Made by a program: the position numbers and the translations under genes
Sequence record: MK817115.1
Origin: Escherichia phage vB_EcoM_phAPEC6
Length of the DNA stretch: 64,000 nucleotides
Reading direction: 5' to 3' (one strand)
The notes under the pieces: model-generated
Told to the model about the DNA's origin: nothing
What the model saw: the letters and a program-made list of their open reading frames with translations, nothing else
Database searches by the model: none
Shown: positions 38,603 through 64,000 of the stretch, piece by piece
How the letters are laid out: every line of letters begins with the position of its first letter
Numbering within the stretch: position 1 is the stretch's first letter

Positions 38603-38650
38603 ATATCATAAATAAATCAAATGAATGAACGAATTATATGGAGTCCAAAA

Positions 38651-41600: not shown

Positions 41601-44600
41601 GGGATATTGACGGAACTATTGGAGATAGCAGTACTGGAACTATTTTATTTGGTGATCGTCGTGGTCAATATGACAAATATAAAAGATTTGGTGTACAGCC
41701 ATTCAAAATTACAAAAACTGGAAATAAAACATCTTCTGGTATTGATATTTGTGTGGTTGAATATATTGCACCTGAAATTTTAGGTTTAGTGTCTGGATCT
41801 TTAAATCATAGAGCAGAACCTTGGACATATGGTGATATGGGTGACATGGAATTTACATACATGAACACTACATTGTTTGCATATGACCAAATGATGCTTT
41901 TGTATAAAGCTAAACCAGCACAATTTGCTAACTATTTCTGGGATACCCGCAACGATAACTTAAAAGAAGTATTCACTGATGGTTCACAATTCCTTTATGG
42001 TGATACACGTAAGCGTATTAATTTTGATAAAAATACAGTAGTTCATGGTGAAAATAGCACAAGAACAATTGGTTATCAAATGTTTGTAAGTGACCATTTG
42101 ATGTATCAAAATAAAAATATTACCACCAAGTATGGGGATGTAGTTCGTTCTTCTTATATAAATGTTGGTCATAAAATTGGAGGATTTACTAAAGCAGATC
42201 AGCTAACATTCAATGCTAAATCTTTCGGTCTTATTTCACAAGAAAACCAAACCATTGGTCTTGTTCGTTCTAATAATATCCGTGATGAGCAAATGAGTGC
42301 GATCAAAATTACTTGGAATGGTAGTGCATATCAGATTGATGGATATGATCTAGTTGGTGCTAAATTTAAATATAAACTTCCAGTAAAAAATGGTAGAAAA
42401 GTAACTCTTAAATTGGAAAACCGTAATGTTGTTCATTATAATGAATGGAAGTCTGAAGCTTCAATTGAATATGGTAAAGTTTTCAATAGTTACCAAGAAG
42501 TTTATACTTTTATTTGTGGATATGGTGAATATCTTAAAGAACATGGTTGGATTTTTGAAGATGTAAATGATAGTGGTGCTCAACAAGATTGGAACACTAT
42601 TGCTAAAGATTTCGTGATCTGGAGTCAGAATTCTCTAGTAACTGGTGAATTTATTTCTTGTACCCCAAGTGCTGCAAACGCTAAATTTGGGGCAGACTTT
42701 GGTTCAGTACAATCTATTACGCAAAATAATGGTGGTGTATGGTCATTACTTGATGATAATAACCAAGGTATTCGCCAATATGAAATTGAAACTTCTCGTA
42801 TTGGAAATATCTTCACTGTTAGAACTTTAGAATCTAATAAACGCATTGCATTGATTCGTTTAAGTTTGTGTTCATATGAACATGCTGTTATTTTTGATGA
42901 TAAAACTATTTTTGGTGATTACATTTATCAGCCAACATATGGTTCTATTCAAGAACTAATTAAAATGTATGGATATATTACTGGTTCATGGACTGGTCGC
43001 CTACAAGCTCCTGGATTTATTATCTTGGAAGCTGGAACACTACCATCATTTGAAAAATTAGTGTCGGATTTCCAACATTATTATGATAGTGAAACTCCAG
43101 TAAGTGATGTACAATTACAAGAGTTGTCAAACCATTTGATTGGTTATCAATCTCGTGATTATCTACAGCGTATGATTAGTAGTGATGTTAGTCGTGTTGA
43201 TTTCTATAAAGGATTCATTCACGATAAAGGTACTAACCAAGTTTTAGAACGTGTACTTCGTGTTTCTAAATCATATGACACTGATGAATATAAAGCATTA
43301 CAAGAATGGGCATTTAAAATTGGTACATATGGTAATATTGATGGTAAGAAAAACCTTCAATTTAAACTAATCAATGACCAATTTAAACAACAACCTCAAA
43401 TGGTTTCTTTTGATGTAAATGCAACTTCAAATGGTAATGGTAATCATATTGTATACTTCGGTGAGCAAGGTAAAGATCCTCGTTGGATTACACGTCCAAA
43501 TGGTAAGTTCTCATTCCCAATGCGTAGTGGAAGAAGTGAAAACATCCAACTTCCAGATATTGGTCCAGTAACATTGGATGAAGTATCGTACACAACAAAA
43601 GATTTCAGTACTGCATATAATGACCGCATAACTTATACTAATGGTAAAGGTGAAAATCCTGAATCTGTGTGGATGTTTAAAGACGGTAATGGTTTGTGGA
43701 ACATTTTTGAATTGGTTGATACTAATGTACAAATGGTTTCTATAACACCTATTGAAAATACCGATGTGTATGCTGAACAATTTTGTAAAGTAACTTTAAC
43801 TGATAATGTACCACTTGAAGATGGTGATTATTATTATTTTGTTGATGAAACTAACTTTATGCCAGATACTTTAACAGTAGAAAGTCAATATTATACTGCT
43901 GGTTCTGATCCTAAAGTTATGGTAGTTCCATTTGACACTTCTATTGATATTGAATTTACTGATCCAGATACACGTCCACGTTTGTATCGTTATGTATCAC
44001 GTTTTGCCAGTACTGATGAACGTCAAGCTTACATTGACAAGAAATATAGTTTTAAAGCACCACAAAGTACTTTATTTGATCGTCCAACGACATATGATGA
44101 ACGTACTAACATTACTGAGCTATATCTAAACGTTTATGACCCAATTAATGGTGTTATTCCAGGTGCGGCTATGCAAAACGTAACATATACTTCACCAGTT
44201 GATCCTGCACAGTATAATAGTAATGGAGAGTTAATCCAGGCTTGGGGTGCTGATAAAGTTGGTCAAGTATGGTGGAACACTAGCACTGCATTTTATTTGG
44301 ATTATACTCGTGCAATTTATGACGCAGACGGTAATGTTGATATTGATGCAACCAATGAATACAAACGTTACAACTGGGGCCGTTTGTTACCACATAGTAC
44401 CATTGATGTGTTAGAGTGGGTTTGTTCACCAGTTGAGCCATATAACTGGGACAAATACTGTAAAGATGTTGCTAAGAAAAACAAAAATAATACTATGTAT
44501 CTACCAAGTGGAACTGCACTTGAAGATAATTATAGTACATTTTTGGAATATGATAGTTCAACTGATAGTTATGTAACAAAATACTATTTCTGGGTACGTG

Positions 44601-47600
44601 ATACAATTTATGTACCACCACTACATACCAGAACGAAATCATGTACTGACATTGCTCGTATTATTAAAGATCCAACACAGCTAAACATTCCTTGGTTCGC
44701 TCCAATAAATGAAAACTCGTTTATTCTTAGTAATATGCAATTTAAAGTGAATGATGATACCAGTATTTTAACTGTTTCTTATTACATGGATAGTACTGAA
44801 GTTGTTAAACATGACCAGTATCAACTATGTAAAGAAGGTGACAGCTATAACTTTAACCCACTAATTTGGGATTCAATGTGGAACTCACTAATTGGTCAAG
44901 AAACAACTGAATCAGGTTCTGTGATTAATTTATTATATCCAGATGTTGATAACGGTTTAGGATCAAACAAAACTTGGTTCCAAAATGTTATAGAAGCTCG
45001 TAGAAACTTTGTAGAAAGTGCTAATAATTATTATAGGTCACAAAACATAACCACTAATAGTGTTGTTATGGAAGATGTGTTTAATGTTAAAACCACTGAA
45101 GTTAACCCTAATGAAGTTTCTTTCCGTGTATTGTCTTACAATAATGAATTAGTTATTGCAGTTGAAAGTGATAAATTTAAAGAAAATGACGCTGTTATTT
45201 TAAGTACTAGTGGATATCTACCAAATCCATTAACTTCTAGTGCTGTTTATTTTATTCACTTCGACGAAAATGGATATATTCAGTTAATGAATAGTCCAGC
45301 AAACGCGGGTAGTGTTGTTACTATAACGTTAGAGAACAAAGGTGAGGGACAACATAAAATGATTAAACAATCTGATTATGTTGAATCACTAGGAACTTCA
45401 TTAGACATGACTCAGTACTGGTCATATGCTGATTGGTATGATGTTGGATATGATAGTAACACGACTTATACTCAAGAGTCAAGCTTAGAAGATGCTAATA
45501 CTAAAAACTACCAAGTTGGCGATATTATCAGAGTTACCGATAGTGAAAACATTTGGACATTGTATATTAAATCACAATCACGCGATTCAATTTATTGGAA
45601 AGCGATTGGTCGTGAAAACAGTACAGTTGAACTCAATGATATGCTTTACGCAGATTATAGTGTTCATAATGATAATGGTTCACTAAGCAATCGTGAAATC
45701 AACGTTCGTAAAGCACTAGCTTTACTCAAAAATTCTTTCGATTTACATCAAAGCGAAATTGTTTTTGATATGGTCAAATATGTACATGTTGAACAAAGTG
45801 TTGTGGATTGGGTATTTAAAACATCATATATCTATATTGTTGGTTTGGAACAATCATTAGTTCAAAACTATTCAAACGATAATTTGATTAATCAAATTGT
45901 TGAATATTTTGAAGAAGTTAAACCTTATAGAACTAAAATTCGTTCACAAATAGAGCAAAAGACATCTGATGATGATTTAATAAAAGGTCTATGTAATGAT
46001 TTAGATCCTAATGGATATATTTTCGTTGATGGTTCTTGGATCAAAACTGAAAAAGATATTTGGGATTATGAGTACGCTCAATTTAATGAAATTACCCAAA
46101 AATGGGAACAGGTAGGTTCACTACCAAGTGATTTCGTTACACCAAATAGAAGATTCCAAGAAATTGATATTATTATGCATTATGATAATATTCAGTGTAA
46201 ACCAAATGAAGATTTGGCAAGCATAAATGAATTAGTAAGTGTTAATAACAAATATCAATCCAATGAAAAGGATGCTGTTAGTAACTATGAATTACAACGT
46301 TATATATATTCTTTCCCAGAATATAGTGAAGAAACTTTCGATCTTCTTATTGCTTATCAAATGCAAATCTACTATCCAGAATTGGATGTAACACTAGGAA
46401 CAGCATATGGCGTTAACCAGTGGTATAAAGACCATGCGGAAGATTTAGAAGCAACTGATGAATTCACTGCTACATTGGAACGTGTTTATAAAGAATCAAC
46501 GCATAACGATATGTTTACTGACCTTAGACAATATGTTCAGTATAACACATTGGCAAACCGTTTGAAACTTTATAAAGATATAAGTGATGAGAAAATTCAC
46601 GATGAAGTTGGATGTGGATTTAGTGGACTTACTTATAATGACAATCCTAGTACTAGACTTCCATTAGGCTTTTCTTCTAGTAATGATTATAACTATGGAT
46701 ATTTTGAAATAAGCAGTGAATTGTATCAAAAATACATTTCATTAATTAAAGATAAAAATCCTGACGCATCAGACTATGAAGTAAAAGTTAAACTTGAAGT
46801 TGAGTATGGTGTATATGTTTATCGTTATGATGAAGTAGGTGGTGATACCCGTTTCTATACTGATGCTATTCACGTATTAGCAGGTATGAGAGGGTTATTC
46901 GACAAAGACGCTACTGATAAGTACGAAAAAGCTGAAGAGATTCTTAGTAAGACCCCAATTGATATCTATGCAATTACAATGATTCCACGAAAATATGTTT
47001 ACTTAAATGTTAACGGTGTATATCAAAGTATACCTGATGAACAAAGTATTGATGATTTCATGGAAGATTATTTTATCACAAATGGTGAAATGGTTGAACT
47101 AGCTGAAATAAATCTTGATGATTTACCACTAGATCAAAATAATCCAATGTATTCTGATTATCAATATATACTTGATAGTATTACTGAAGCTAAGTACTTC
47201 AATGATATGAATGCATTTGATAACCTAGCATTGGAATCTCAAACTTCTTCAATAAAATGGGAAGTTAAAGATGATGAAGTTGATCCTTATATTGTGGATA
47301 TATCTGACATAAACCCTTCTGGGCGTGATGTAGGTCAAATTAGATTTACAGTTGATGGATATGGGTTTGACAATGTATCTCTTGTACAATTACGTGATAA
47401 CAGCAGATATCAAACTGAAGGTATGGCAATTATCAATCCATATAAACATACAGAAGCAATTGTAAGTATTCCTTCATATGCTAAGATTGAAAATGATATT
47501 AATAAAACAACATCGAAGTTTGATGAAAAATATTTCTATCGTGTGAGATCTATTAATAGCTTAACTGAAGCAGAAATAGTTGACAATGACCTATCTGATG

Positions 47601-48622
47601 GTGATAAGGTGATGATTTTCACTCCTGATGGTGAAGATTTTGTGAGATATCAAAATCACACATGGGAAACAATCTTGCGTGTATCTAACATCAAAAACAA
47701 TACAACTCCGATCCTATTCACTGTAAGAAATACAGGTAAGGAAACGATTGAATTGATTGATGAGAGTACTGGTGCAGTTCTCCGTTATGATAACATCACT
47801 CTTGCACAACAAAATGAGCCAGTACAGCCTCTAGCATTGAACATTGTTCGTGTTAGAACATTTGCTGACCCTGAATTTGTCAAGAATGGTATTAAATTGT
47901 ATGAACAAAATAGAAATTACACCATTGATGTAATTAATTATGATGTTTTCTACGATACTACTTTAAATGGTGGTAAGTACAATGACGGAATAACACCAGA
48001 TGACGTTGACGTTTGGATAATCTCCAATGAAATATTTGATGTTGATGGAATTACTATCGATAACGGTTATAACTTACCAATTACGGGTGCGGGAGTTCTT
48101 AGTGAATTGGCAAGAACTAAAATGACTGATAGTTTAGAAATCAACGTTATCGAATATGATTCAAGTGTTATTCAACCGTTTAGAAATAATGAAGGGATAT
48201 GGGTTTATGGATTCCCAATGGTTGACGGTATGTATATCGGTGTTGTTGGTGGTACTGTTACTAACATCACAACCATTAGTGAAGAAAATACAACCTATGT
48301 TTCTCAACCTAAATCAATAAGTCCTTATAGTATTAGAAATAATGTTTTATCCGGTTCAGCCGCGAACATGAATGATATTATATCGATTGGATATGAAAAA
48401 GTTGAAGTTAGAAATGCAAATAATTTACTCCGTGGTGTAATGTATAGTGCAGAACATGATTTTAAACTTAATACCACATATTCTTTCAATGGAATTAATT
48501 TAGGTAATTATGATATGTTAAAACGTTACACACAAAATAGTTACACTATAGATCTTTCAGTATACACTGATAGTCTACAAGTTAGTGGTAATGATATTAA
48601 AAATATATTATTAGTTAAGTAA
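38651..48622 (+). CDS. Giant structural protein (~3323-3333 aa), probable baseplate/tail component
   Basis: Uninterrupted ~10 kb frame; GGAG RBS before ATG 38651 (ORF track starts at 38621); follows gp25/gp6-like genes; Asn/Tyr/Thr/Gly-rich with no obvious long internal repeats. Confidence 0.55.
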   Translation: MTNNFKFQPTQMAEAVQKKLFIKRLPEWMQGLEDIQKVSDDVIQQWFNPAENELVDGYIGDMGSPAAAGNIFLHESTVARQLYQLSTAYVSKNDDSTIRSIQFYDDLVGYMNHYGALTDNESRLFNGKFYAWTPAINPNKMNNFSSYLWDTKNSYNITSPDYIVMERGALNGNTWSLQNFWYTLGETLEDGSILTEELMQDSRFIRARAPIIEYNKNIELINYGTKFRGTVDLFSDIIKPEDIVQKDINSGIRIDGIIPQDGMRILFTSIGNNGENNRIYNVYVKKMQDGTRVYGLALDPEEETESRPSGEPQDGDVVLITKGNEYGNSSMYWNGSLWVRAQSKTSVNVFPKFQLYDRNGIKLDNSTTYPSSNFKGSELFGFKINYNYATDSVYGYNIELGDYNYYIYENFLQSQRYTYDHLGKEVEIDGLYYYNIIDENNEMNLQTDWVRSEEYSKQFVKQTPQVQRTDMYRVFSTVYDMEVFKEPVDGMYAYVIEVDRTYQYYKADRETYLDWHPITGDGVQIVKYDHTFELAQKVLDNDSDIIEVVVDGVDVSKYTKNVSKGQVQSITLDSTVELDEDSVIQIRTYSSTVTPNKELGAYEVPINLQNNPYNSNIIYINQGDYTLHFQDIIQKNITRGSSDDFNDYEERLAKGLVNNGVGTKIIQNEASMLPLMAHTANEDIDLFEATMFMQSEYFRFINKFNTQMLRMYDENPSDFLQNSAANIVDAILTTINMGRDSSFPFYYDNVGSTSGFIRAFIPPTPQFLGILQAYVPEKATFLTAGSKPSCYNISHTGIISKAYRVINGVDKMDDVVYELENRIFNSIDNKFKDVDYVPVLNSDDLFPTPYFTKTEYSAEEKQTLLLRGYINFTATNGISNSTHDYDPNNWRTWNYTGTYYVVNGQSTEIPARGSWRAIYTDQYGTYRPATHPWEMFGFTQRPTWWNQEYEPTAVQVGERDSDVVYVYEALVMNEQGDLVPSGLWDIDGTIGDSSTGTILFGDRRGQYDKYKRFGVQPFKITKTGNKTSSGIDICVVEYIAPEILGLVSGSLNHRAEPWTYGDMGDMEFTYMNTTLFAYDQMMLLYKAKPAQFANYFWDTRNDNLKEVFTDGSQFLYGDTRKRINFDKNTVVHGENSTRTIGYQMFVSDHLMYQNKNITTKYGDVVRSSYINVGHKIGGFTKADQLTFNAKSFGLISQENQTIGLVRSNNIRDEQMSAIKITWNGSAYQIDGYDLVGAKFKYKLPVKNGRKVTLKLENRNVVHYNEWKSEASIEYGKVFNSYQEVYTFICGYGEYLKEHGWIFEDVNDSGAQQDWNTIAKDFVIWSQNSLVTGEFISCTPSAANAKFGADFGSVQSITQNNGGVWSLLDDNNQGIRQYEIETSRIGNIFTVRTLESNKRIALIRLSLCSYEHAVIFDDKTIFGDYIYQPTYGSIQELIKMYGYITGSWTGRLQAPGFIILEAGTLPSFEKLVSDFQHYYDSETPVSDVQLQELSNHLIGYQSRDYLQRMISSDVSRVDFYKGFIHDKGTNQVLERVLRVSKSYDTDEYKALQEWAFKIGTYGNIDGKKNLQFKLINDQFKQQPQMVSFDVNATSNGNGNHIVYFGEQGKDPRWITRPNGKFSFPMRSGRSENIQLPDIGPVTLDEVSYTTKDFSTAYNDRITYTNGKGENPESVWMFKDGNGLWNIFELVDTNVQMVSITPIENTDVYAEQFCKVTLTDNVPLEDGDYYYFVDETNFMPDTLTVESQYYTAGSDPKVMVVPFDTSIDIEFTDPDTRPRLYRYVSRFASTDERQAYIDKKYSFKAPQSTLFDRPTTYDERTNITELYLNVYDPINGVIPGAAMQNVTYTSPVDPAQYNSNGELIQAWGADKVGQVWWNTSTAFYLDYTRAIYDADGNVDIDATNEYKRYNWGRLLPHSTIDVLEWVCSPVEPYNWDKYCKDVAKKNKNNTMYLPSGTALEDNYSTFLEYDSSTDSYVTKYYFWVRDTIYVPPLHTRTKSCTDIARIIKDPTQLNIPWFAPINENSFILSNMQFKVNDDTSILTVSYYMDSTEVVKHDQYQLCKEGDSYNFNPLIWDSMWNSLIGQETTESGSVINLLYPDVDNGLGSNKTWFQNVIEARRNFVESANNYYRSQNITTNSVVMEDVFNVKTTEVNPNEVSFRVLSYNNELVIAVESDKFKENDAVILSTSGYLPNPLTSSAVYFIHFDENGYIQLMNSPANAGSVVTITLENKGEGQHKMIKQSDYVESLGTSLDMTQYWSYADWYDVGYDSNTTYTQESSLEDANTKNYQVGDIIRVTDSENIWTLYIKSQSRDSIYWKAIGRENSTVELNDMLYADYSVHNDNGSLSNREINVRKALALLKNSFDLHQSEIVFDMVKYVHVEQSVVDWVFKTSYIYIVGLEQSLVQNYSNDNLINQIVEYFEEVKPYRTKIRSQIEQKTSDDDLIKGLCNDLDPNGYIFVDGSWIKTEKDIWDYEYAQFNEITQKWEQVGSLPSDFVTPNRRFQEIDIIMHYDNIQCKPNEDLASINELVSVNNKYQSNEKDAVSNYELQRYIYSFPEYSEETFDLLIAYQMQIYYPELDVTLGTAYGVNQWYKDHAEDLEATDEFTATLERVYKESTHNDMFTDLRQYVQYNTLANRLKLYKDISDEKIHDEVGCGFSGLTYNDNPSTRLPLGFSSSNDYNYGYFEISSELYQKYISLIKDKNPDASDYEVKVKLEVEYGVYVYRYDEVGGDTRFYTDAIHVLAGMRGLFDKDATDKYEKAEEILSKTPIDIYAITMIPRKYVYLNVNGVYQSIPDEQSIDDFMEDYFITNGEMVELAEINLDDLPLDQNNPMYSDYQYILDSITEAKYFNDMNAFDNLALESQTSSIKWEVKDDEVDPYIVDISDINPSGRDVGQIRFTVDGYGFDNVSLVQLRDNSRYQTEGMAIINPYKHTEAIVSIPSYAKIENDINKTTSKFDEKYFYRVRSINSLTEAEIVDNDLSDGDKVMIFTPDGEDFVRYQNHTWETILRVSNIKNNTTPILFTVRNTGKETIELIDESTGAVLRYDNITLAQQNEPVQPLALNIVRVRTFADPEFVKNGIKLYEQNRNYTIDVINYDVFYDTTLNGGKYNDGITPDDVDVWIISNEIFDVDGITIDNGYNLPITGAGVLSELARTKMTDSLEINVIEYDSSVIQPFRNNEGIWVYGFPMVDGMYIGVVGGTVTNITTISEENTTYVSQPKSISPYSIRNNVLSGSAANMNDIISIGYEKVEVRNANNLLRGVMYSAEHDFKLNTTYSFNGINLGNYDMLKRYTQNSYTIDLSVYTDSLQVSGNDIKNILLVK

Positions 48623-48624
48623 TA

Positions 48625-48660
48625 AAAAAGGAGAGCATAATGCTCTCCTTTTCTTTTTTT
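48625..48660. terminator. Bidirectional terminator (ggagagca-taa-tgctctcc), same stem as at 2905
   Basis: A-run upstream, long T-run downstream; between convergent giant gene and ClpA-like gene. Confidence 0.7.
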
Positions 48661-50947
48661 ATACTAGTGCTTTATCTACAGCTTTGGTACGTTTCGGCTT
48701 AATACCGATTTTACCATCAATAACATCAAATGTAATGTTACCACCATTCACAAGTGAACCACACAACATTTCTTTAGCTAGTGGTACACGAATGTTTTGT
48801 TCAATGGTACGTTTCATTGGACGTGCACCCATACCAACTTTTACCCCATTTTTCGCAAGCCATTCACGTGCAGCTTTTGTCAATGTAACTTTAACATTAC
48901 GGTCTTTGACTTGTTCATTCAAACCACCCATGAACTTATCAATGATGCTGTCAATAGCTTCACTGCTTAGGTCTTTAAACGTAACGATACTATCAATACG
49001 GTTAATAAACTCTGGTGGCAAGAATGCTTTAATTGCCTTGTCCTGTGCAGTGTCACTACCGCTCATACCAATGCTACGCTTTGTTGAATCAGCCGCACCA
49101 AGGTTTGTAGTCATAATAACAGTTACGTTATTAAAATATACAGTTTTACCTTGAGAACCAGTCAGACGACCTTCATCCAAAACCTGTAGGAAGGTTAGTA
49201 GTACTTTACGATCTGCTTTTTCAATTTCATCAAGTAACAGTACTGCATTAGGGAACTGCTCAATTTTATCCAACAGTAAACCGTTACCAGAATCATGACC
49301 AACATAACCTGGAGGTGAACCAATTAGTTTAGAAACAGTATGTTCTTGAGAAAATTCTGACATATCAAAGCGAATGAGTTCCGCACCAGTTGCGTCTGCT
49401 AATGCTTTGGTAATTTCTGTTTTACCAGTACCAGATGGTCCAACAAACATAAATGCACCCTGAACACTAGATTTGTCACGCAGTCCTGCACGAGCTACCA
49501 TCACGTTATCAACTAATTTTTGAATAGCTTCCTCTTGACCGTATACACGTGAGCGTAGTGCATCTGGTAGATTACGCATACGATCACTTTCAGTACATGC
49601 AACCACGTTGATATCCAAATTGGCAATACCAGCAACAACTTCTTGAATCAAATTGGCAGTAATAAGCTTACTATTGTTGTCACGTGAACGAACTTTAGCC
49701 GCAGCAGCATCCATTAGATCAATTGCTTTATCTGGGAAGTGCTTATTCTTCAGGAATTTATCACTGAGAGAAATTACAGCATCCATTGCATCAGATGTGA
49801 ACTCAACATTATGGAATTTTTCATACGTTGGTTTCAAACCATTAACAATTGCACGAGTTTCATCAATTGTCGGCTCAACTACGTCAATTTTCATAAAACG
49901 ACGAGTTAATGCACTATCTTTCTCGATATTTTTACGATATTCATCATATGTTGTTGCACCAATTACACGAATCTCACCACGTGAAAGTGCTGGCTTAAGC
50001 ATATTGCTCATGTCCATAGAACCATTACTTGCGGAACCAGCCCCAACCATAATATGAATTTCATCAATGAAAACAATAGTATTTTCACGTTTCTTTAGTT
50101 CTTTTAGCAAATTGTCGATGCGTTCTTCAAATTCACCACGATACTTAGTACCAGCAGTCAATGCACCAACATTTAGTGAAAGAATTTCAACGTCTTTTAG
50201 GTGTTCAGGTACGTTACCATCAGCAATAGCTTGTGCAAGCCCGTCGATGATTTGTGTTTTACCTACACCAGCTTCACCAGTGAGAATAGCATTCTTTTTG
50301 GTTTTGCGAGCAAGAGTCTCAATCAATGCAGACAATTCTTTCTGGCGACCAATCATAGGATCTAGTTTGCCTTCTTTTGCAAGAGCAGTTAGATTCGTTG
50401 TATAGTCTTCCAAACCTTTTTGTTTAGATGATTGCTGCTGTTGGGCCACTTTTTTATCTCCAATCGGTTCGTCATTAATACTTTGTAAGTTGATACCCTT
50501 ATCAAGTGACTCAACGTGTTTCTGTAATGCACGTGCAGCTTCAGTACAGCTAACACCTTCTTCTTTTAACGCAGCTTCTAGTGCTGTGTTAGGGAAAGAC
50601 AGACATTCGAATAGAACAAAATATGCATCAATCGAAAAATCATCACTTTTTAGTTGTTCAATAACTGATTTTTTAGAAAGCTCATGTACAACGCGATTCA
50701 CTAGAAGTGAAGTTCGATTCGCGTCTTCATCTTTAACACTTTTTGGTGCATGTGGAACTGTTGTATTTTTAAGATAGTTCATCAGGCGGTTGTGCAGTTT
50801 GTCTGCATCAATGTTCATATCTTCAAATACGTTCTTGATGCTATCAATAGTCAGTACTGTGGCACTTACGTGGTCAATAGTCAAGAATGTATGACCTAGA
50901 GATGTTGCCAGTTCGTCGCTTTTTTTGAACAATTGAGTAAGATTCAT
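48659..50947 (-). CDS. ClpA-like Hsp100 AAA+ unfoldase with two nucleotide-binding domains
   Basis: D1 Walker [10 protein letters not shown] and Walker B VFIDEIH; D2 Walker [10 protein letters not shown] and Walker [10 protein letters not shown]; KRSIGMSG parallels the ClpA IGL ClpP-docking loop as recalled; ORF-track start is GTG, ATG 50945-50947 has AGGAGA RBS. Confidence 0.8.
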
Positions 50948-51057
50948 GTATTCTCCTATGTGATTCACGTCACTCTAATTAATAAACATTATATCACATT
51001 CTTACGGTTTGTCTACAAGGTAAATAAAGATATACCCGATTTATTTTGGAGACAATC

Positions 51058-57879: not shown

Positions 57880-60021
57880 ATGGCAGTATTTTCTAATTTT
57901 GAAGGAACTATGCAGCCCAAATTCATATTGGGGAAAAAAGGTGCTTCAATAAATTTTATCAATGATTCAGTTTCTATAAAAGATTATCTAGGAGAACAGT
58001 TCCTACCACTGAAGGTAGGAACTTCATCTGACCCTAATTCAGCAGTTAACGTAAAATATCTTGAAGATAACCCTAATGCATTATTTGGTGTTGTACCCCC
58101 TACCGATGATGTAGGAAAGAACAATAATACGTATTTTCAAATTGATGAAGATGGTATTGTTGATATTTTTGCAAAAAGTAATGGTACATGGGTAAAATCA
58201 TTATACATTAATAAAAAAGTTCTATCCAGTAAAAATGGTGGCGATTTCATCGGACTTATTACTGGAGGTACAGTTCAACAGGCCCAGTTTTATATAACAC
58301 CAGAAGAATTTGGTGCTAAAGGTGATGGCGAAACTGATGACACTGCTGCTGTAAATTTATGTGCTGCTTATGCTAAAGAAAATAAAATCCAAATTCAGGC
58401 TGGTGGTAATTACCGTATCAAAACTGCAATATACCTGGAAGATGTAACTTGGTTTGGGGGAACTATTACTGGTAATGGTGGTACTATGGTATCCGTTATT
58501 AATTCCCAAATACAATTTGCAACACTTACTGGATGTTATTTAAAATTCTTCGGTGGCGATGGTAAGTTTTATTTTAATAAATTTATAAACATCACAAGTA
58601 CTGCTGCATTTTTAATGCAAGGTATGACACAACCAGGAACAATAGATTTTTGCTTTAATGAAATGACCCAATGTAAGTATGGTGTTCTTCAACAAGGTAC
58701 TGGTGAGAAAATGAAGGTTGGTAGATATTCATATAACCACATACATGATATATATGGTGATGCAATTGAACTAAACGTAATTAACTCACATTATCCTGAT
58801 GGTTTTGTGATTGAAGGAAACGTAATTGAAAACGTTGATGGTTCTAACGCTCCAATCCCACTTTCAAACTGGGGCATTGGTATTGGCGTTGCTGGTTCTG
58901 GTCCTTATGGTTTAGATGCACCAGATACACAATATGTCAGAAACTTTGTTATTAAAAATAACAGACTATATAATGTTAGACAATGTATCCACGTTGAATT
59001 AGGAATGGACTTTAAAATACTTAATAATGAAGTTTATCCATCATCTTTAGTTTCTGTTGGTACTGGATTAACCACTGCTGGTGTTATAACTTATGGTTCG
59101 AAAGAATTCATTATTGATGGGTTGACTGGTCATTTGCTTAATGATCCTTCTATCACAAATAGAATGGTTTCAATAAACTGGGGTGTAACTTCTGGTCGTT
59201 TTGCTGGACCACCTAGAAACTTTAAAATTTCTAATCTCTATATTCCAGAGTCTTCTATACTTGTTTATACTTCCGGTTCTGATAATTGGTTAAATAATAC
59301 AGAATTGAGCAATATCACCTGTTCTAAAATCCTTTGGCGTGGTTTGCCATCATCATCTAAATTTAGTGATATTAGAACTAAAGAATTAGATGTAATTGGT
59401 CAACACCTCTCTACCGAAGGCGAAGGTGGTGGTATCTATACTCGCTCTAAATATACTTATACTAATTGGACTAACTGTGTTGTTCAAGATGATTGTAATG
59501 TTTCAAAATATAGTTTTTCTAAAATGTATGTAGACAGAATAGACCAATCATCTAATAACTTTAAAGTTACAACTGCAATCGATGGTACAGGACACCGTGG
59601 CCCAGTACTGATACCTGTAGTTGAGCAATATTATATTCCATACGATACTTTTCCTGGGGGACGCTATTTCTCTGAAGGCACGATTATTCATAAACAATCG
59701 GGTGGAAAATATATTGTAACTGTTGGTGGTTCTTTTTTCGGAAAATATGACACAATTAGACAAACGGTAGCAGGACAAACATACATAGAAGCATTGGGTG
59801 TGTCATGGGGTGAAAACCAATATGCAAAAGCTGCTGGTACTGAGATCATTATATCCGGTGCTGGTGAAAATGGTGGTGATTTGAGAACGTATATAACTCG
59901 TGCAGTGTATGTTGTAAACAACGTATATAGAATTGATATTGCAGATCCTATCATAACAGCAACTGCCGCTGGTGCAGCATTAAAAGCTGCCCAACCCGTA
60001 ACTTACATAACCCTACCATAA
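57880..60021 (+). CDS. Tail fibre/tailspike with probable right-handed beta-helix (depolymerase-like) domain
   Basis: N-terminus shared with next gene; Gly/Asn/Thr-rich repeating strands typical of pectin-lyase-like folds; AAGGGAGGA RBS. Confidence 0.5.
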   Translation: MAVFSNFEGTMQPKFILGKKGASINFINDSVSIKDYLGEQFLPLKVGTSSDPNSAVNVKYLEDNPNALFGVVPPTDDVGKNNNTYFQIDEDGIVDIFAKSNGTWVKSLYINKKVLSSKNGGDFIGLITGGTVQQAQFYITPEEFGAKGDGETDDTAAVNLCAAYAKENKIQIQAGGNYRIKTAIYLEDVTWFGGTITGNGGTMVSVINSQIQFATLTGCYLKFFGGDGKFYFNKFINITSTAAFLMQGMTQPGTIDFCFNEMTQCKYGVLQQGTGEKMKVGRYSYNHIHDIYGDAIELNVINSHYPDGFVIEGNVIENVDGSNAPIPLSNWGIGIGVAGSGPYGLDAPDTQYVRNFVIKNNRLYNVRQCIHVELGMDFKILNNEVYPSSLVSVGTGLTTAGVITYGSKEFIIDGLTGHLLNDPSITNRMVSINWGVTSGRFAGPPRNFKISNLYIPESSILVYTSGSDNWLNNTELSNITCSKILWRGLPSSSKFSDIRTKELDVIGQHLSTEGEGGGIYTRSKYTYTNWTNCVVQDDCNVSKYSFSKMYVDRIDQSSNNFKVTTAIDGTGHRGPVLIPVVEQYYIPYDTFPGGRYFSEGTIIHKQSGGKYIVTVGGSFFGKYDTIRQTVAGQTYIEALGVSWGENQYAKAAGTEIIISGAGENGGDLRTYITRAVYVVNNVYRIDIADPIITATAAGAALKAAQPVTYITLP

Positions 60022-60037
60022 AGGAGATTATATTAAA

Positions 60038-60934
60038 ATGGCAGTTTTTTCTAATTTAGAAGGAACCATGAAGAAGTCCTTCATTCTTGGGAAGAATGGT
60101 GCACAGATTACCACAAATGGTAGTGTTGTGCAAATTCAAAACTACTCAGGAACACAACTTCTTCCAATTTCAGCAGGTGAACCAACTGCAAACACACACT
60201 TGGTTACATTAGGATATTTAAACGCACACAGTGGTGGTGGTAGTTCTGGTATCTTACGTGGAACAACAGCACCATCCGATTCGATCGGTCTAGATGGTGA
60301 CGTTTACTTTTTGGTTGATAGTACTAATGTTCTTCAAATTTATATTAAAGATCTTGGTATTTGGAAACCATTTAAAGGTAGCTCACCTGGGACTGATAGC
60401 TCATATGTAACTACTGAAATAGTTCCTGTTTCTGCATTTACATTAGTGCCAGATACTACTGATCATTATACTTACACACTACCAGAATCAGTTCATGGTA
60501 GAGGTTCTGATATTATGATCCAACTACAAGGTGACCCAGGTAATGTTGCATTGGAATCAGTATTCCAAACCACAGTAACAGTTAGTGGTATTGGGGATAT
60601 AACAATTGATGTGATTGGTCAAATCACAGATTATGCAAGTGTTAAAGTAAACATTATAGGAGCAACAACAATGACAGTACCTTATAGTAAATTGGTAAAC
60701 CAAGCAGATTGGGTTTCTAGTGATGGTGATTTTACAATCACTATTCCTGCATCTGAACACAATCAAACACCAGATAATTTGTATATTTCAATTTATGCAA
60801 ATAAAACACCTGGGAGTGTTTCGTCATCTCCATTTGAATTGGTAGTGACTGATACACAAATTAGTAGTACTGGTGATGTAATCTTCACTTCTGATATTTC
60901 TTTCAGTGGTAAGATTGTCATCTCTGGTAAGTAA
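60038..60934 (+). CDS. Tail fibre protein sharing the N-terminal anchor module with the 57880 gene
   Basis: MAVFSNLEGTMKKSFILGKNGAQI vs MAVFSNFEGTMQPKFILGKKGASI; divergent C-terminus; AAGGAG RBS. Confidence 0.5.
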   Translation: MAVFSNLEGTMKKSFILGKNGAQITTNGSVVQIQNYSGTQLLPISAGEPTANTHLVTLGYLNAHSGGGSSGILRGTTAPSDSIGLDGDVYFLVDSTNVLQIYIKDLGIWKPFKGSSPGTDSSYVTTEIVPVSAFTLVPDTTDHYTYTLPESVHGRGSDIMIQLQGDPGNVALESVFQTTVTVSGIGDITIDVIGQITDYASVKVNIIGATTMTVPYSKLVNQADWVSSDGDFTITIPASEHNQTPDNLYISIYANKTPGSVSSSPFELVVTDTQISSTGDVIFTSDISFSGKIVISGK

Positions 60935-60943
60935 AAAAATTAA

Positions 60944-60973
60944 CCAGACTTGTTCTAAATAAGTCTGGTTTTT
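60944..60973 (+). terminator. Intrinsic terminator (ccagactt, 9-nt loop, aagtctgg, T5)
   Basis: 8-bp stem and T-run read directly. Confidence 0.55.
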
Positions 60974-61071
60974 ATTATATTTGCTTTTGTCAAATAACAT
61001 ATTAATTGTTGGATAACAGCATAATAAAACTAAATATATACATATTAACAAGGTTATAATGGAGGGTATAA

Positions 61072-64000
61072 ATGTACTCAATAAAAACTGACTTAGATAT
61101 TACTGGTGCTGGTACGGTTGGTAAGGATCTTTTAGTCAAAGGAAATGCTGTTTTCAACAATAACCTAACTGTAAATGGTACTGTAACTTTTGCAAATGCA
61201 ACTTTTACTGCCATTGAATCATCAACTGCCAACATTACATCTACTTTAGATGTAGGTGGCAAAGCAACACTTTCTGGTGGTCTTGGTGTTGAGGGTAATA
61301 CTACAATCGGTAGTGCAGTTGTTGGGTCTGATACAGCAACAATTAATTCAAACGCTACCTTTAACGGTACTGTATCAGTTGGTTCTGATTTTACACAAAC
61401 TGCTGGTACAACCACTCTACAAGCAACTAAAGTTAAAAACTTAGAAGTTGCTGAAACAACAGCATTTAAAGGTAATATTACTGCTGATGTTGGGACTACT
61501 GCTGCATTTGATAAAATTACTGCTAATACCGCAGAAATTACTAATGTAAGTACAACAGATATTAGTAGTACTGGTACTGCTACATTTAACGATGTGACAA
61601 TTAGTGGTACACTTGGTGGTGAGTTTAATCTATCTGACTTAAATGCAGTAACATTGAACGTTACTGGTGCATCTAACCAACAAGGTGCAGTAACTTTCGG
61701 TGCTAACGTAACTGGTATTAACAGTACTGCTACTTTTAAAGACATTCGTATTGGTTCTAACTCTGAATCACAAACCTTCAGATTAAGCTTCCCTTACACT
61801 GCTCCTGGTAAACGCCCAACTGTTATTCTACAAAACGAAATTCAGTCCGAGCTAATGTCACCTGCAAACTTGACAGTATTGACCTCTGCTTCTTTTGGTA
61901 ATGCGTCATTATCTTCTTATGGTATTACTGGTAATGGTCTAAACAAATTAGATTATCTAACAGTTTCTGGTAACAATACACAATCACCAGACACACCACT
62001 ATTAGAAGTTCAAAAAGGAAAAACTAAAGTTGCTGACTTTGAAGTAACCGGAACTGCAACTATTCCAAATATCGAAAGTACTGGTACTGCTAATTTTAAT
62101 AACATTAATGTTTCTGGTCTTCTTGGTGGAACGTTCCAACTAGACGATATTAATGCAGTATCTTTGAACGTTACTGGTGTAACTTCATTAGTTGGTGGTG
62201 TTACTCTTGGTTCTAATATTACTGGTTATAACAGTACTGCATCCTTTAAAGCTATCAGCTTAGGTCAAAATAGTCAAGATGCGGCAGTGAAACTAGGTTT
62301 TGGATATACTGCACCAGGTCAACGCCCAACAGTTATTCTACCTAACGAAGTTCAATCAGAAGTCGTTTCTCCTTCTACATTGAACGTTCTTAAAACAGCA
62401 ACTTTCGGTAACGCTTCTCTTTCCACTTATGGTATTACTGGTAACGGTCTAAACAAACTAGATTACCTAACTATTACTGGTAACGAAACACAAGCTCCAG
62501 GTACACCATTCCTACAAGTTGGTGGTAAAGCAATTCTTAATGATGTTGAATTTACTGGAACAGTAACTGGACTAACTGTTGATGTTAGTGGGCAGGATCT
62601 AACACCTAATTCTGTTGTCGCGGCAGCAAATATTAAAGGTGCAACACTTGAAAGTACTGGTAACACTACCGTGGGTGCTAAACTAACTGTTACTGGTGAT
62701 ATTGCTGGTACAACTGCAACTCTTTCTGGTGCATTATCCGCTGGTTCAGTAAGTTCTGGTTCTATTACTGGTACAACTTCTGTATCTGCACCAACAATTA
62801 GTGCATCTACTGAAGTAACGGCCCCTACTATCACTGCGAGTGGAACTGTAAGTGGGCAAACAATTAACGGTACTAATATTAGTGCAACAACTCTGACTGC
62901 ACCAACTATTAGTGGTAATACTAACTTTACAGAAAATGTTGATATTACTGGTAGCTTAACTGTTGGTTCTCTAGACTTGAGCACTACCGATATTAATGCT
63001 AAATCAATCACTACTACTGCTGGTGCAACTATTGGTGGTGATTTAGTAGTTCAAGGCTCTTTTGATTTATCAGCAGCCGACCTTAATGTTAAATCATTAA
63101 CTACTTCTGGTATTGTTAAAAGTAATGATCTTGTTAATGCTAACGTACTTCCAGTACTTAATAGTACTACCATAACGGCAACTACTGTTAATGCTGATGA
63201 TATAACTGTTACCGGATCTGCTAATTTGGGTACAATTTACTCAAGCTCATCTGTTCTAGTTGGGTCAACTTTAACTGTAACTGGTGAAACTACAACTGCA
63301 TCGTTGGTTACCCCAACCATTTCAAATGCAAGTGGTGTCACTATTTCCAATAATACAAATGTAACTGGTGACCTAACTGTTACTGGTGCAGTTATTCCAG
63401 GCTCTATCGATCTAGCAACAACTGATGTTAATGCTAAATCCATTACTACTACTGCTGGTGCAACTATTGGTGGTAACCTAACTGTTAATGGTACAGTAGA
63501 TCTTACTACGGCTGATGTTACTGTCAAATCTTTAACTAGTACTGGTGCAATTGTTAGTAATGAATCCACAATTAGTAGTGTTCTACCTAAACTTCAAAGT
63601 ACTGATGCAACTATTGCAACCCTTGGTTCAACAACTGCAAATATTACTAATTTGAATGTTACTGGTGCATCTACCGTAGCTGACGTAACTTCTTCAGGTA
63701 AAGTTAAAGCAGTTTCTGTAGAAACCCCAACAATTAGTAACGTTGATGGTGTATCTATTTCCAATAATACATCTATTACTGGTGACCTAACAGTTTCTGG
63801 TACAGTAACACCAGGTGCAATTGATTTGAGCACAACTGATGTAAGTGCAAAATCCATTACTACTACCGCTGGAGCAAATATTGGTGGAGATCTTGTTGTT
63901 TCTGGTACAGTTGATTTAAGTGGTGCTGATGTATCTGTTAAATCTCTAACAAGTACTGGTATTATTACAGTTAGTAGTGCAGAAGGTATCAACGTTCTAC
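61072..64000 (+). CDS. Repeat-rich tail fibre protein, 3'-truncated by window end
   Basis: ATG 61072 after GGAGGG RBS; frame read by hand with no stop to position 64000; T/G/V/N/S-rich; absent from ORF track because incomplete. Confidence 0.6.
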   Translation, partial: MYSIKTDLDITGAGTVGKDLLVKGNAVFNNNLTVNGTVTFANATFTAIESSTANITSTLDVGGKATLSGGLGVEGNTTIGSAVVGSDTATINSNATFNGTVSVGSDFTQTAGTTTLQATKVKNLEVAETTAFKGNITADVGTTAAFDKITANTAEITNVSTTDISSTGTATFNDVTISGTLGGEFNLSDLNAVTLNVTGASNQQGAVTFGANVTGINSTATFKDIRIGSNSESQTFRLSFPYTAPGKRPTVILQNEIQSELMSPANLTVLTSASFGNASLSSYGITGNGLNKLDYLTVSGNNTQSPDTPLLEVQKGKTKVADFEVTGTATIPNIESTGTANFNNINVSGLLGGTFQLDDINAVSLNVTGVTSLVGGVTLGSNITGYNSTASFKAISLGQNSQDAAVKLGFGYTAPGQRPTVILPNEVQSEVVSPSTLNVLKTATFGNASLSTYGITGNGLNKLDYLTITGNETQAPGTPFLQVGGKAILNDVEFTGTVTGLTVDVSGQDLTPNSVVAAANIKGATLESTGNTTVGAKLTVTGDIAGTTATLSGALSAGSVSSGSITGTTSVSAPTISASTEVTAPTITASGTVSGQTINGTNISATTLTAPTISGNTNFTENVDITGSLTVGSLDLSTTDINAKSITTTAGATIGGDLVVQGSFDLSAADLNVKSLTTSGIVKSNDLVNANVLPVLNSTTITATTVNADDITVTGSANLGTIYSSSSVLVGSTLTVTGETTTASLVTPTISNASGVTISNNTNVTGDLTVTGAVIPGSIDLATTDVNAKSITTTAGATIGGNLTVNGTVDLTTADVTVKSLTSTGAIVSNESTISSVLPKLQSTDATIATLGSTTANITNLNVTGASTVADVTSSGKVKAVSVETPTISNVDGVSISNNTSITGDLTVSGTVTPGAIDLSTTDVSAKSITTTAGANIGGDLVVSGTVDLSGADVSVKSLTSTGIITVSSAEGINVL
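61567..62590 (+). repeat. Tandem duplication of a ~512-bp coding unit inside the fibre gene
   Basis: agtactggtactgct... and ggtattactggtaa(t/c)ggtctaaacaaa(t/c)tagatta(t/c)ctaac recur ~510 nt apart; protein blocks YTAPG(K/Q)RPTVIL and YGITGNGLNKLDYLT repeat. Confidence 0.6.
62981..63980 (+). repeat. Three tandem ~415-440-bp coding repeats (~140 aa each) in the fibre gene
   Basis: a(c/a)tga(t/c)(a/g)t(t/a)a(a/g)tgc(t/a)aaatc(a/c)at(c/t)actactac(t/c)gctgg(t/a)gcaa(c/a)tattggtgg(t/a) recurs at ~62981, ~63421, ~63835. Confidence 0.6.

Follow-up and report, generated by a model that had tools for sequence, protein, structure and literature searches.

The window analysed here, a 64,000-nt stretch of the genome of Escherichia phage vB_EcoM_phAPEC6 (sequence record MK817115.1), ends in a repeat-rich region, positions 61072 to 64000, for which a mechanical ORF list offers four minus-strand reading frames, whereas the first-pass annotation read it as a plus-strand fibre gene that the list had missed and that runs off the window. 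Which strand encodes a protein, what that protein is, and whether its repeats act to vary the length of a fibre are the questions raised by this locus. The overall explanation that we favour, with considerable confidence, is that the region belongs to an already known fibre gene, built of old shaft modules that occasionally change in number, and that the minus-strand ORFs are antisense artefacts.

A virion tail-fibre gene at the window end

The plus-strand frame that begins at ATG 61072 is indeed open to position 64000; its 976 codons contain no stop, which disposes of the concern that an in-frame stop had been misread, and given a stop-triplet frequency of 0.065 in the window such a stretch would arise by chance with a probability of ~10^-28.5. 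The frame is absent from the ORF list because ORFs that run off the window are unlisted, so that its apparent omission, correctly recorded by the first-pass annotation, is a window-edge effect. ATG 61072 is the earliest possible start, being preceded directly by an in-frame TAA (61069–61071), and it coincides exactly with the annotated start of gp571 (YP_009102158.1) of phage 121Q. A Shine-Dalgarno sequence, GGAGGG, can be read directly on the plus strand at 61061–61066, 5 nt upstream of the start codon. Further upstream, just past the stop (60934) of a virion structural gene orthologous to gp572, a terminator-like plus-strand hairpin with a 13-pair stem followed by a T-run (60942–60970; 0.1 such structures expected in shuffled sequences) divides that gene from the fibre gene; in phage UE-S1, terminator features are annotated in the equivalent intergenic gaps, but on the opposite strand.

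Nucleotide searches returned 11 genomes that match with 100% coverage and about 100% identity. Across positions 60000–64000, the sequence differs from both 121Q and SHEFM2K at only 2 of 4001 nt (~99.95% identity), and gp571 of 121Q and M2K_0545 of SHEFM2K are the same gene with the same start and the same neighbours, each with an 1841-aa tail fibre protein (180.38 kDa) as its annotated product. The window holds codons 1–976 of 1841, the 5' 53% of the gene (61072–64000, plus strand). Beyond its end, as the 121Q genome reveals, the coding sequence continues for another 2598 nt, giving a full gene of 5526 nt and a product of 1841 aa and 180.4 kDa. The computed mass of 180.38 kDa is that of phAPEC6 Gp256, which we equate with gp571 by mass and gene order, and Gp256 has been found in phAPEC6 virions by mass spectrometry (15 peptides), as has the orthologous CBB_226 in virions of phage CBB (10 peptides). 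The product also matches the PHROG 4549 profile 'tail fiber protein' (phrog_4549; E 1.6e-144, 484 bits). Taken together, the identity to 121Q and SHEFM2K, the profile match, the mass of Gp256 and the virion detection of CBB_226 bear out the original call of a fibre gene: positions 61072–64000 hold the first half of a gene that encodes an 1841-aa, 180-kDa virion fibre of an Asteriusvirus (121Q-like) jumbo coliphage. The gene is not new; annotations of it exist in over a dozen genomes.

The neighbourhood is that of a structural cassette, in the order tail protein, structural protein, fibre, DUF4376 protein, structural protein and then thyA on the minus strand, an order common to Asteriusvirus, Mimasvirus and the Salmonella jumbo phage SE_PL. 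The fibre gene is thus flanked by a structural protein gene upstream and, downstream, by genes for a 259-aa DUF4376 protein (gp570, for which DUF4376 is the only Pfam match) and a further structural protein (gp569, which has no family match). Orthologues at the same cassette position, namely CBB_226 and GAP32_220 of Mimasvirus and gp175 of SE_PL, are 1553–1560 aa long, are 35–40% identical to the 121Q-type fibre and, like it, have a pair of A units, several B-like units and the conserved C-terminal domain (see below), whereas the 121Q-type cassette differs from those of Mimasvirus and SE_PL in having an extra colanic-acid-depolymerase-like gene upstream.

Minus-strand ORFs as by-products of codon composition

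The four minus-strand ORFs, at 61002–61745 (247 aa), 62463–63011 (182 aa), 63237–63569 (110 aa) and 63594–63992 (132 aa), all lie in one antisense register, in which a stop can occur only if the following sense codon specifies Tyr, His or Gln. These residues make up 0.9%, 0% and 2% of the fibre protein, respectively, and all 15 stops of the register precede Gln or Tyr codons, so that long open antisense stretches follow from the rarity of Gln and Tyr codons in the sense frame. Counts of substitutions by codon position show a strong third-position excess, which is uninformative here because the antisense register shares its third positions with the sense frame; stop conservation, synonymous/non-synonymous counts and stop context were used instead. 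The sense frame is intact across the 1827–2129 codons of all orthologues, and several of the antisense ORFs acquire one or two internal stops in phages ph0011, UB, JP4 and EcMJ. By synonymous/non-synonymous ratios, most comparisons come out in favour of the sense frame, and the remainder are nearly tied.

That the minus-strand ORFs are instead the real genes and the plus-strand frame is fortuitous could be argued from their length, considerable for a genome of 36–38% GC, from their presence in the mechanical list, and from the failure of the third-position excess alone to separate the two frames. We regard this as extremely improbable, since it would leave a 976-codon sense frame to a chance of about 1e-28, would have the broken frames and not the intact one under conservation in the orthologues, is favoured by none of the substitution ratios beyond a rough tie, offers no account of the placement of every antisense stop before a rare codon, and conflicts with the detection of the sense product in virions of relatives. 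The minus-strand ORFs are therefore by-products of sense-strand codon composition, and stop context and the stops gained in orthologues bear out the first-pass annotation in treating them as artefacts.

Module anatomy and changes in unit number

The protein begins with a region of 147 residues (61512 being its last nucleotide in a stretch that starts at 61072) whose first ~50 residues are nearly invariant in 25 family members from phages of several host genera, M1, Y2, S3, I4, K5, D7, L8, G12, T15, K18 and L20 among the invariant positions; this is presumably the virion-attachment end. Two adjoining repeat units of 170 aa follow, A1 (aa 148–317, 61513–62022) and A2 (aa 318–487, 62023–62532), the phase of the units being arbitrary. 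A tandem duplication of ~512 bp had been proposed here, and the duplication is real, but its unit measures 510 nt, or 170 codons. A1 and A2 are 65% identical in nucleotides when compared ungapped and in register, 71% when gapped, and 53–60% identical in amino acids; their longest uninterrupted identity in register is 19 nt, and they are most alike at unit nt 379–478, where the best 100-nt window reaches 81%. A non-repeated linker rich in Thr, Ser and Gly (aa 488–600, 62533–62871), which contains the conserved motif FTGTVTGLTVDVSGQDLTPNSV, also found in the fibre chain of Pectobacterium phage phiTE, separates A2 from the B units. Three of these lie in tandem within the window, as first described with lengths of ~420–440 bp: B1 (aa 601–745, 435 nt, 62872–63306), B2 (aa 746–883, 414 nt, 63307–63720) and B3 (full unit aa 884–1021), which starts at 63721 and is cut by the window end at 64000 after 280 bases, 279 of them in frame. 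Their starts are thus spaced 435 and 414 nt apart, and they share 68–73% nucleotide identity ungapped, 71–79% gapped and 47–69% amino acid identity. The 75–85% identity initially given for the repeats holds only for the best cores, such as the best A1/A2 window, and is too high overall; the repeats exist, but are more ancient than was then stated.

Past the window, the three good B units of ~140 aa are followed by a degenerate fourth (aa 1044–1122), then by a family of 112-aa repeats and finally by a strongly conserved C-terminal domain of ~100–180 aa, one common to many myovirus tail fibres and present at the fibre C-termini of rV5-like, phiTE-like and related phages. The repeats lie far above chance expectation (blastn E 3e-46 and 1e-56; matches to unit HMMs E 1e-47 to 1e-103). 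Tandem Repeats Finder (TRF) reported no rows for positions 58000–64000 because the units are too diverged and their period too long. Our literature search found no paper that describes these repeats or places this fibre on the virion.

Comparison among isolates shows that orthologues range from 1827 to 2129 aa and differ in length by whole units. JP4, CRJP21 (vB_EcoM_CRJP21) and UB carry orthologues with 93–97% amino acid identity and the same module order. The JP4 and CRJP21 fibres (2129 aa; two records only 6 aa apart) have three A units owing to an in-frame insertion of 170 aa, and the middle unit is a chimera with an A2-like 5' part and an A1-like 3' part. At the informative sites of the JP4 unit the sequence is A2-like to about nt 380 and A1-like from about nt 384 to 510, the pattern expected from an unequal crossover between A2 and A1, and the switch maps to the start of the stretch in which A1 and A2 are most similar. 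UB (1959 aa) and JP4 each have one extra 336-nt unit of the 112-aa family, 89% identical in nucleotides to the adjacent unit. These module gains in JP4, CRJP21 and UB are plain from the comparison; the recombination events behind them are deduced from the sequences, and lend comparative support to the earlier proposal that recombination between repeats can alter fibre length. The suggested survey of copy number among isolates has thus yielded third A units and additional 112-aa units. A separate observation is that in a sister clade the whole fibre gene is duplicated in tandem.

The dynamics implied by the description of the gene as 'repeat-driven' were nevertheless overstated. Copy number is shared by most close isolates, the gene has one and the same length in 12 of them, and the two-unit A array is kept in Asteriusvirus, in Mimasvirus (CBB, GAP32) and in the Salmonella jumbo phages (SE_PL), as well as in about 20 metagenomic relatives at 35–40% identity; conservation of this state in three phage groups means that copy-number change is rare. 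Since no in-register exact match between the A units exceeds 19 nt, they would be a poor substrate for frequent recombination. We accordingly reject a hypervariable, contingency-type tandem-repeat locus, which is contradicted by the divergence of the units (65–73% identity), by the short longest shared run, by the lack of a TRF array and by the constant length in the 12 isolates. As a weak lead only, an allele with one A unit appears in a single 2.2-kb Logan contig (L008), which carries a nonsense TAA at codon 562.

The same facts (two A units throughout the three groups and the metagenomic relatives, unchanged length in the close isolates, diverged units with short exact runs to which TRF is silent) can be carried further, to the view that the modules are ancient and kept by selection at a fixed number, that the gene is no length-varying device, and that the variants are rare, non-adaptive accidents. 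This is a serious contender, although we consider it somewhat the less probable side of an even question, for whole units have been gained in at least two lineages and in two different repeat families, and the sister clade has duplicated the entire gene; unit gains and whole-gene duplication together indicate that modular expansion recurs in this fibre family. On the explanation that we prefer, shaft modules were duplicated in tandem and in frame long ago, and the resulting repeats are mostly stable; occasional unequal homologous recombination of adjacent units would add or remove whole modules with the frame intact, so that unit number changes now and then between isolates, as is ordinary for phage fibres.

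Probable form of the shaft and its place on the virion

Two thirds of the residues of the fibre are Thr, Gly, Ser, Val, Ala or Asn. Scans against Pfam and NCBIfam gave no NCBIfam family and, from Pfam, only Bactofilin (PF04519) at 23.7 and 15.2 bits, below the gathering cut-off of 27.9; we reject the assignment and take the match as only a hint of beta-helix-like periodicity. PF26208 and PF26209, precomputed on homologues, went unreported in our local Pfam scan of four homologues, three of which carry them. An AlphaFold2 monomer model of aa 140–500 built from 13 sequences was unusable (pLDDT 43.6); a model of a single A unit from a 30-row unit alignment reached a pLDDT of 76 but was an extended chain nearly devoid of secondary structure, for which Foldseek found no match in the PDB.

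The only relative with a solved structure is the 793-aa chain g of phiTE (PDB 9CUY/9MJN), a 'putative tail fiber protein' detected with E 4.4e-30 over four stretches from the single sequence and with E 7.3e-70 from the family profile. It has in common with our fibre an A-unit-like segment, the region of the FTGTVTGL...DVxG motif and the C-terminal ~180 aa, but is less than half as long, and its N-terminus lies outside the alignment. The HMMER alignments span positions from about 180 to 792 of the chain, past its N-terminal ~170 residues; the aligned parts fall outside those N-terminal residues that could be modelled for the phiTE fibres, so the homologous segments have no experimental coordinates. 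Chain g belongs to a network of trimeric fibres at the baseplate; the fibres of phiTE are trimers, and for one of them (LTF) a long beta-helix shaft is predicted. Composition, the extended monomer model and homology to this trimeric fibre suggest that the product would be a homotrimeric, beta-rich, thin shaft roughly 100–120 nm long, to which each module would add roughly 7–11 nm; oligomeric state, beta-helix fold and length are all projected from models and by analogy. Because both of its ends are conserved across host genera, the fibre is likely to serve as an anchored spacer or scaffold, which would leave host-specific recognition to neighbouring or other proteins.

Where such a shaft sits on the virion is a further matter. 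The legacy annotation 'long tail fiber proximal subunit (T4 gp34-like)' suggests a proximal half-fibre of the T4 type, with the N-terminus on the baseplate and the C-terminus joined to a distal, receptor-binding part formed by gp570 (DUF4376) and gp569. Two conserved termini around a variable middle, the retained synteny of the downstream gene pair and a different gene after gp570 in UB and CRJP21 all fit this arrangement, and T4 gp34, too, is a large fibre protein with repeats, from a phage with a contractile tail; a functional analogy as a proximal shaft is conceivable. Homology to gp34 must, however, be rejected: the best BLASTP E-value is 1.8, an hhalign comparison of the family profile with gp34 yields a probability of 0.1%, and the profile retrieved no gp34 chain from a copy of the PDB that contains the full-length protein (9x3r_M); the neighbouring genes differ as well. 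In micrographs of relatives, moreover, the only baseplate fibres to be seen are short, measuring 28.6 nm in CBB and described as 'six short tail fibers' in phAPEC6, far below a shaft of ~100 nm, and we therefore think a gp34-type half-fibre rather unlikely. The same discrepancy in length invites the thought that the 180-kDa fibre (gp571, Gp256, CBB_226) forms not baseplate fibres but the 'hair' or whisker filaments on the sheaths of phAPEC6 and CBB, to which no gene has yet been assigned. The hairs of CBB are 119 +/- 10 nm long, whereas its baseplate fibres measure 28.6 nm. A rise of 0.065 nm per residue, obtained from the predicted 512 Å per phiTE fibre on the assumption that this means the 793-aa chain 9CUY_g, would translate the 1553 residues of CBB_226 into about 100 nm and gp571 into about 119 nm; according to the CBB paper, in addition, RaK2 lacks a homologue of CBB_226, and the paper reports no whisker description for that phage. 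Yet GAP32 has the gene and has not been reported as hairy, the cassette around the gene is one of tail and baseplate-fibre genes, the solved chain g of phiTE is part of a baseplate model, and the length estimate itself depends on a predicted model, all of which makes this assignment improbable, more so than the half-fibre. Were it true, gain or loss of A, B or C modules would set the length of the hairs, and a gene would be assigned to a morphological feature unexplained since 2017–2020.

For phage annotators, it is useful that the gp34-like legacy name lacks sequence support and that the fibre can be described instead as a chain of defined modules of 170, ~140 and 112 aa. JP4 and CRJP21 provide a clean example of what an unequal crossover would produce, a jumbo-phage fibre longer by exactly one module.

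The fibre gene and its antisense open reading frames

From ATG 61072 to the end of the window at 64000, the plus strand is open for 976 codons without a single stop, which, given that 6.5% of triplets in the plus frames of the window are stops, has a chance probability of about 10^-28.5. The ATG is the first possible start of the frame, the codon immediately before it being an in-frame TAA; it is preceded by a Shine-Dalgarno motif, GGAGGG, read from the sequence at 61061-61066 (+), and downstream of the preceding gene there is a terminator-like hairpin (60942-60970). The mechanical ORF list contains only minus-strand ORFs here because it omits ORFs that run off the source; the first-pass annotation was right in describing an open frame that the list had missed and that leaves the window.

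In a megablast search with positions 60000-64000, 17 phage genomes aligned over 80% or more of the query, 11 with an identity of ≥99%; all belong to 121Q-group jumbo phages (Asteriusvirus) that infect Escherichia. Only 2 of 4001 positions differ from 121Q and SHEFM2K, and in both records a CDS of 5526 nt, encoding 1841 aa, starts at the base equivalent to 61072; thus, 53% of the known gene lies inside the window. Its product (121Q gp571, SHEFM2K M2K_0545) is annotated as 'tail fiber protein / long tail fiber proximal subunit', and the fragment encoded in the window matches PHROG 4549, 'tail fiber protein', with an E-value of 1.6e-144. The computed mass of the full-length protein, 180.38 kDa, is identical to that listed for the phAPEC6 'tail fiber protein' Gp256, which was detected by 15 unique peptides in purified virions and whose gene lies, in the same order as here, between those of a 382-kDa protein upstream and thymidylate synthase (PMC7247149). 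The Mimasvirus orthologue CBB_226 was also detected in virions (PMC5259590). The claimed fibre gene is, then, a jumbo-phage gene with an existing annotation and proteomic support that the window edge truncates, with its frame and start established and its product present in virions of close and distant relatives.

The four minus-strand ORFs (61002-61745, 62463-63011, 63237-63569 and 63594-63992), which the first-pass annotation had dismissed as antisense artefacts, share a single antisense register, in which third codon positions fall on those of the sense frame. A stop in this register is a sense TTA, CTA or TCA across a codon boundary, and the next sense codon must therefore specify Tyr, His or Gln; all 15 stops found precede Gln (8) or Tyr (7). 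These residues are scarce in the fibre protein (Tyr 0.9%, Gln 2%, no His), which is rich in Thr (18%), Ser (11%), Gly (11%), Val (10%), Ala (9%) and Asn (8%); the remaining antisense registers contain 67 and 137 stops. In the orthologues from ph0011, UB, JP4 and EcMJ, the antisense ORFs acquire 1-2 internal stops, and the sense frame of the orthologues is uninterrupted over 1827-2129 codons. Synonymous to non-synonymous ratios favour the sense frame in most comparisons and give a rough tie in the remainder. The stop context, the stops in orthologues and the virion proteomics together make the dismissal of these ORFs secure.

Repeat units and the predicted shaft

A modular anatomy is recovered consistently by a direct-repeat search, self-comparison with blastn, identity scans along the diagonals and unit HMMs; Tandem Repeats Finder reported no repeats for the region. 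Two 170-aa units, A1 (aa 148-317, 61513-62022) and A2 (aa 318-487, 62023-62532), of 510 nt each, follow one another with a period of exactly 510 nt and are 65% identical in register at the nucleotide level (71% gapped; 53-60% in amino acids; self-blastn E-value 3e-46). Downstream are B1 (aa 601-745, 62872-63306, 435 nt), B2 (aa 746-883, 63307-63720, 414 nt) and B3 (aa 884-1021, starting at 63721 and left incomplete by the end of the window), with 68-73% nucleotide identity in register, 71-79% gapped, and 47-69% in amino acids (self-blastn E-value 1e-56). Two further elements of the gene lie beyond the window: a fourth B-like unit, which is degenerate (aa 1044-1122), and, around aa 1276-1455, a family of 112-aa repeats. 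The tandem duplication described at first pass is thus present, at 510 rather than about 512 bp, as are the three or more units of about 420-440 bp; the identity then given, 75-85%, was too generous and is reached only in the best cores (81% over the best 100 nt of the A1/A2 comparison).

The fibre protein has no Pfam or NCBIfam match above threshold, Bactofilin remaining below it. Most of the distant homologues carry precomputed PF26208/PF26209 assignments; our local Pfam-A scan reported neither family for four of the homologues scanned, three of them carriers. The legacy T4 gp34 label fails (best BLASTP E-value 1.8, hhalign probability 0.1%), and a search of PDB sequences left full-length gp34 unmatched although it is present in the library. 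The sole relative there is the 793-aa 'putative tail fiber protein' of phiTE (9CUY/9MJN chain g), matched with E-values of 4e-30 for the single sequence and 7e-70 for a 25-sequence family profile. The phiTE baseplate fibres are trimeric and modelled in their N-terminal residues alone, so that the gp571-homologous segments lie outside the experimental coordinates (PMC11972413). AlphaFold2 monomer models have a pLDDT of 43.6 for aa 140-500 and of 76 for a single A unit, which is an extended chain nearly devoid of structure and has no Foldseek match; this is compatible with an intertwined trimer, although it is no proof of one.

Family-wide conservation is highest in the first ~50 and last ~110 residues, and the B-unit region varies most. 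The C-terminal ~100 aa, part of the last 150 aa encoded outside the window (18146-18595 of L001, a 121Q-type sequence), recur with 35-45% identity at the ends of proteins annotated as tail fibres from ~300 myoviruses in the 130-160 kb range, again at the C-terminus; among them are rV5-like, Phapecoctavirus-like and CR8/phiTE-like phages and records labelled 'Campylobacter phage'. The corresponding gene of BASEL Vequintavirinae carries the annotation 'lateral tail fiber protein with glycosidase domain'. We infer that the product would be a homotrimeric, beta-rich shaft, anchored by its N-terminal end, with the conserved C-terminal domain acting in docking or as the tip. At 0.054-0.065 nm per residue the shaft would be ~100-120 nm long, each module contributing some 7-11 nm. 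We took the lower value from T4 gp34, which spans ~70 nm with 1289 aa, and the upper from the 512 Å predicted for phiTE, on the assumption that this length is that of the 793-aa chain 9CUY_g. In micrographs of CBB and phAPEC6 the baseplate fibres are short (28.6 nm in CBB), and the sheath bears 'hairs' of ~119 nm (PMC5259590, PMC7247149). The estimated length would fit the hairs better than the baseplate fibres; even so, we consider it improbable that the protein forms the hairs.

The neighbourhood of the fibre gene

Asteriusvirus, Mimasvirus and the Salmonella phage SE_PL share a conserved cassette with genes, in this order, for a tail protein, a structural protein, the fibre, a DUF4376 protein and a second structural protein, followed by thyA. 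The 121Q type adds, upstream, a pectate-lyase-like 'colanic acid degradation' tailspike gene (57880-60021, +), whose 713-aa product has a weak pectate-lyase/endosialidase-N-terminal signature and tailspike PHROG matches; since it is absent from the equivalent cassettes of CBB, GAP32 and SE_PL, it looks like an inserted depolymerase tailspike. The 3333-aa 'virion structural protein' (121Q gp582; 38621-48622, +) is probably phAPEC6 gp245 (381.88 kDa, 17 virion peptides). Between this gene and the tail genes, the opposite strand carries a gene for a 769-aa ClpA-like 'ATP-dependent protease' (48659-50968, -), which is an unusual neighbour for structural genes.

In a sister Asteriusvirus clade (vB_Ec-M-J, BF17, fEgEco12, Ecwhy_1 and Turkey3; L007 1-10128, L010 1-9864, L011 458-11262, L012 458-9508 and L013 458-10663) two tandem copies of the entire fibre gene precede the 259-aa DUF4376 gene; they encode 1638-1644 and 1906 aa in fEgEco12, Ecwhy_1 and Turkey3 and 1049 + 582 + 1988 aa in vB_Ec-M-J; both copies retain two A units. 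In UB and CRJP21 the DUF4376 gene is followed by a different, 455-aa 'structural protein' gene (L003 8279-8877; L009 8820-10187), the N-terminal part of whose product is 28% identical to 121Q gp569 (L001 19527-21491). A gp569-like gene comes after it in CRJP21, and gp569 directly follows the DUF4376 gene in JP4. The slot downstream of the fibre gene is thus variable and may hold the host-specific component.

Module number among orthologues

The orthologues comprise 1841 aa in 121Q and 10 close relatives, 1834 in ph0011, 1827 in UE-S1, 1959 in UB, 1988 in vB_Ec-M-J, 1906 in BF17 and fEgEco12, and 2129 in JP4 and CRJP21. In the multiple alignment JP4 has a clean in-frame insertion of 170 aa, and UB and JP4 share one of ~112 aa at 121Q aa 1309; both carry a 336-nt tandem duplicate (89% nucleotide identity) that 121Q lacks. 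By unit HMMs, JP4 and CRJP21, which are separate genome records with fibre proteins differing at 6 residues, have three A units, and every other annotated orthologue has two. Across the 179-182 sites at which A1 and A2 can be told apart, the first JP4 unit is A1-type and the third A2-type; the middle one is A2-type as far as nt ~380 and A1-type over nt ~384-510, its junction lying where the most similar A1/A2 stretch begins. An unequal crossover joining A2 from one copy to A1 from another is expected to give just such a chimera.

A Logan contig (L008, SRR20818753, 2245 nt; gene at 387-2072) carries a single A unit, A1-like in its first 17 aa and A2-like in the remainder, with a 78% identical N-terminus and, downstream of the unit, 99% identity to 121Q. 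At codon 562, TAA replaces the TCA of 121Q, which may reflect an error in the reads, a genuine nonsense mutation or a fault of assembly, and we therefore take this allele only as a lead.

CBB, GAP32, SE_PL and ~20 metagenomic relatives, at 35-40% identity, all have two A units; the A duplication is therefore ancient and normally stable, which counts against a highly dynamic locus. The suggestion made at first pass, that recombination between repeats can change fibre length, is supported by the whole-unit differences among isolates and by the chimeric JP4 unit, and unequal homologous recombination would be the process by which module number changes. As an instance of fibre evolution, this polymorphism in module number is tidy but unsurprising.
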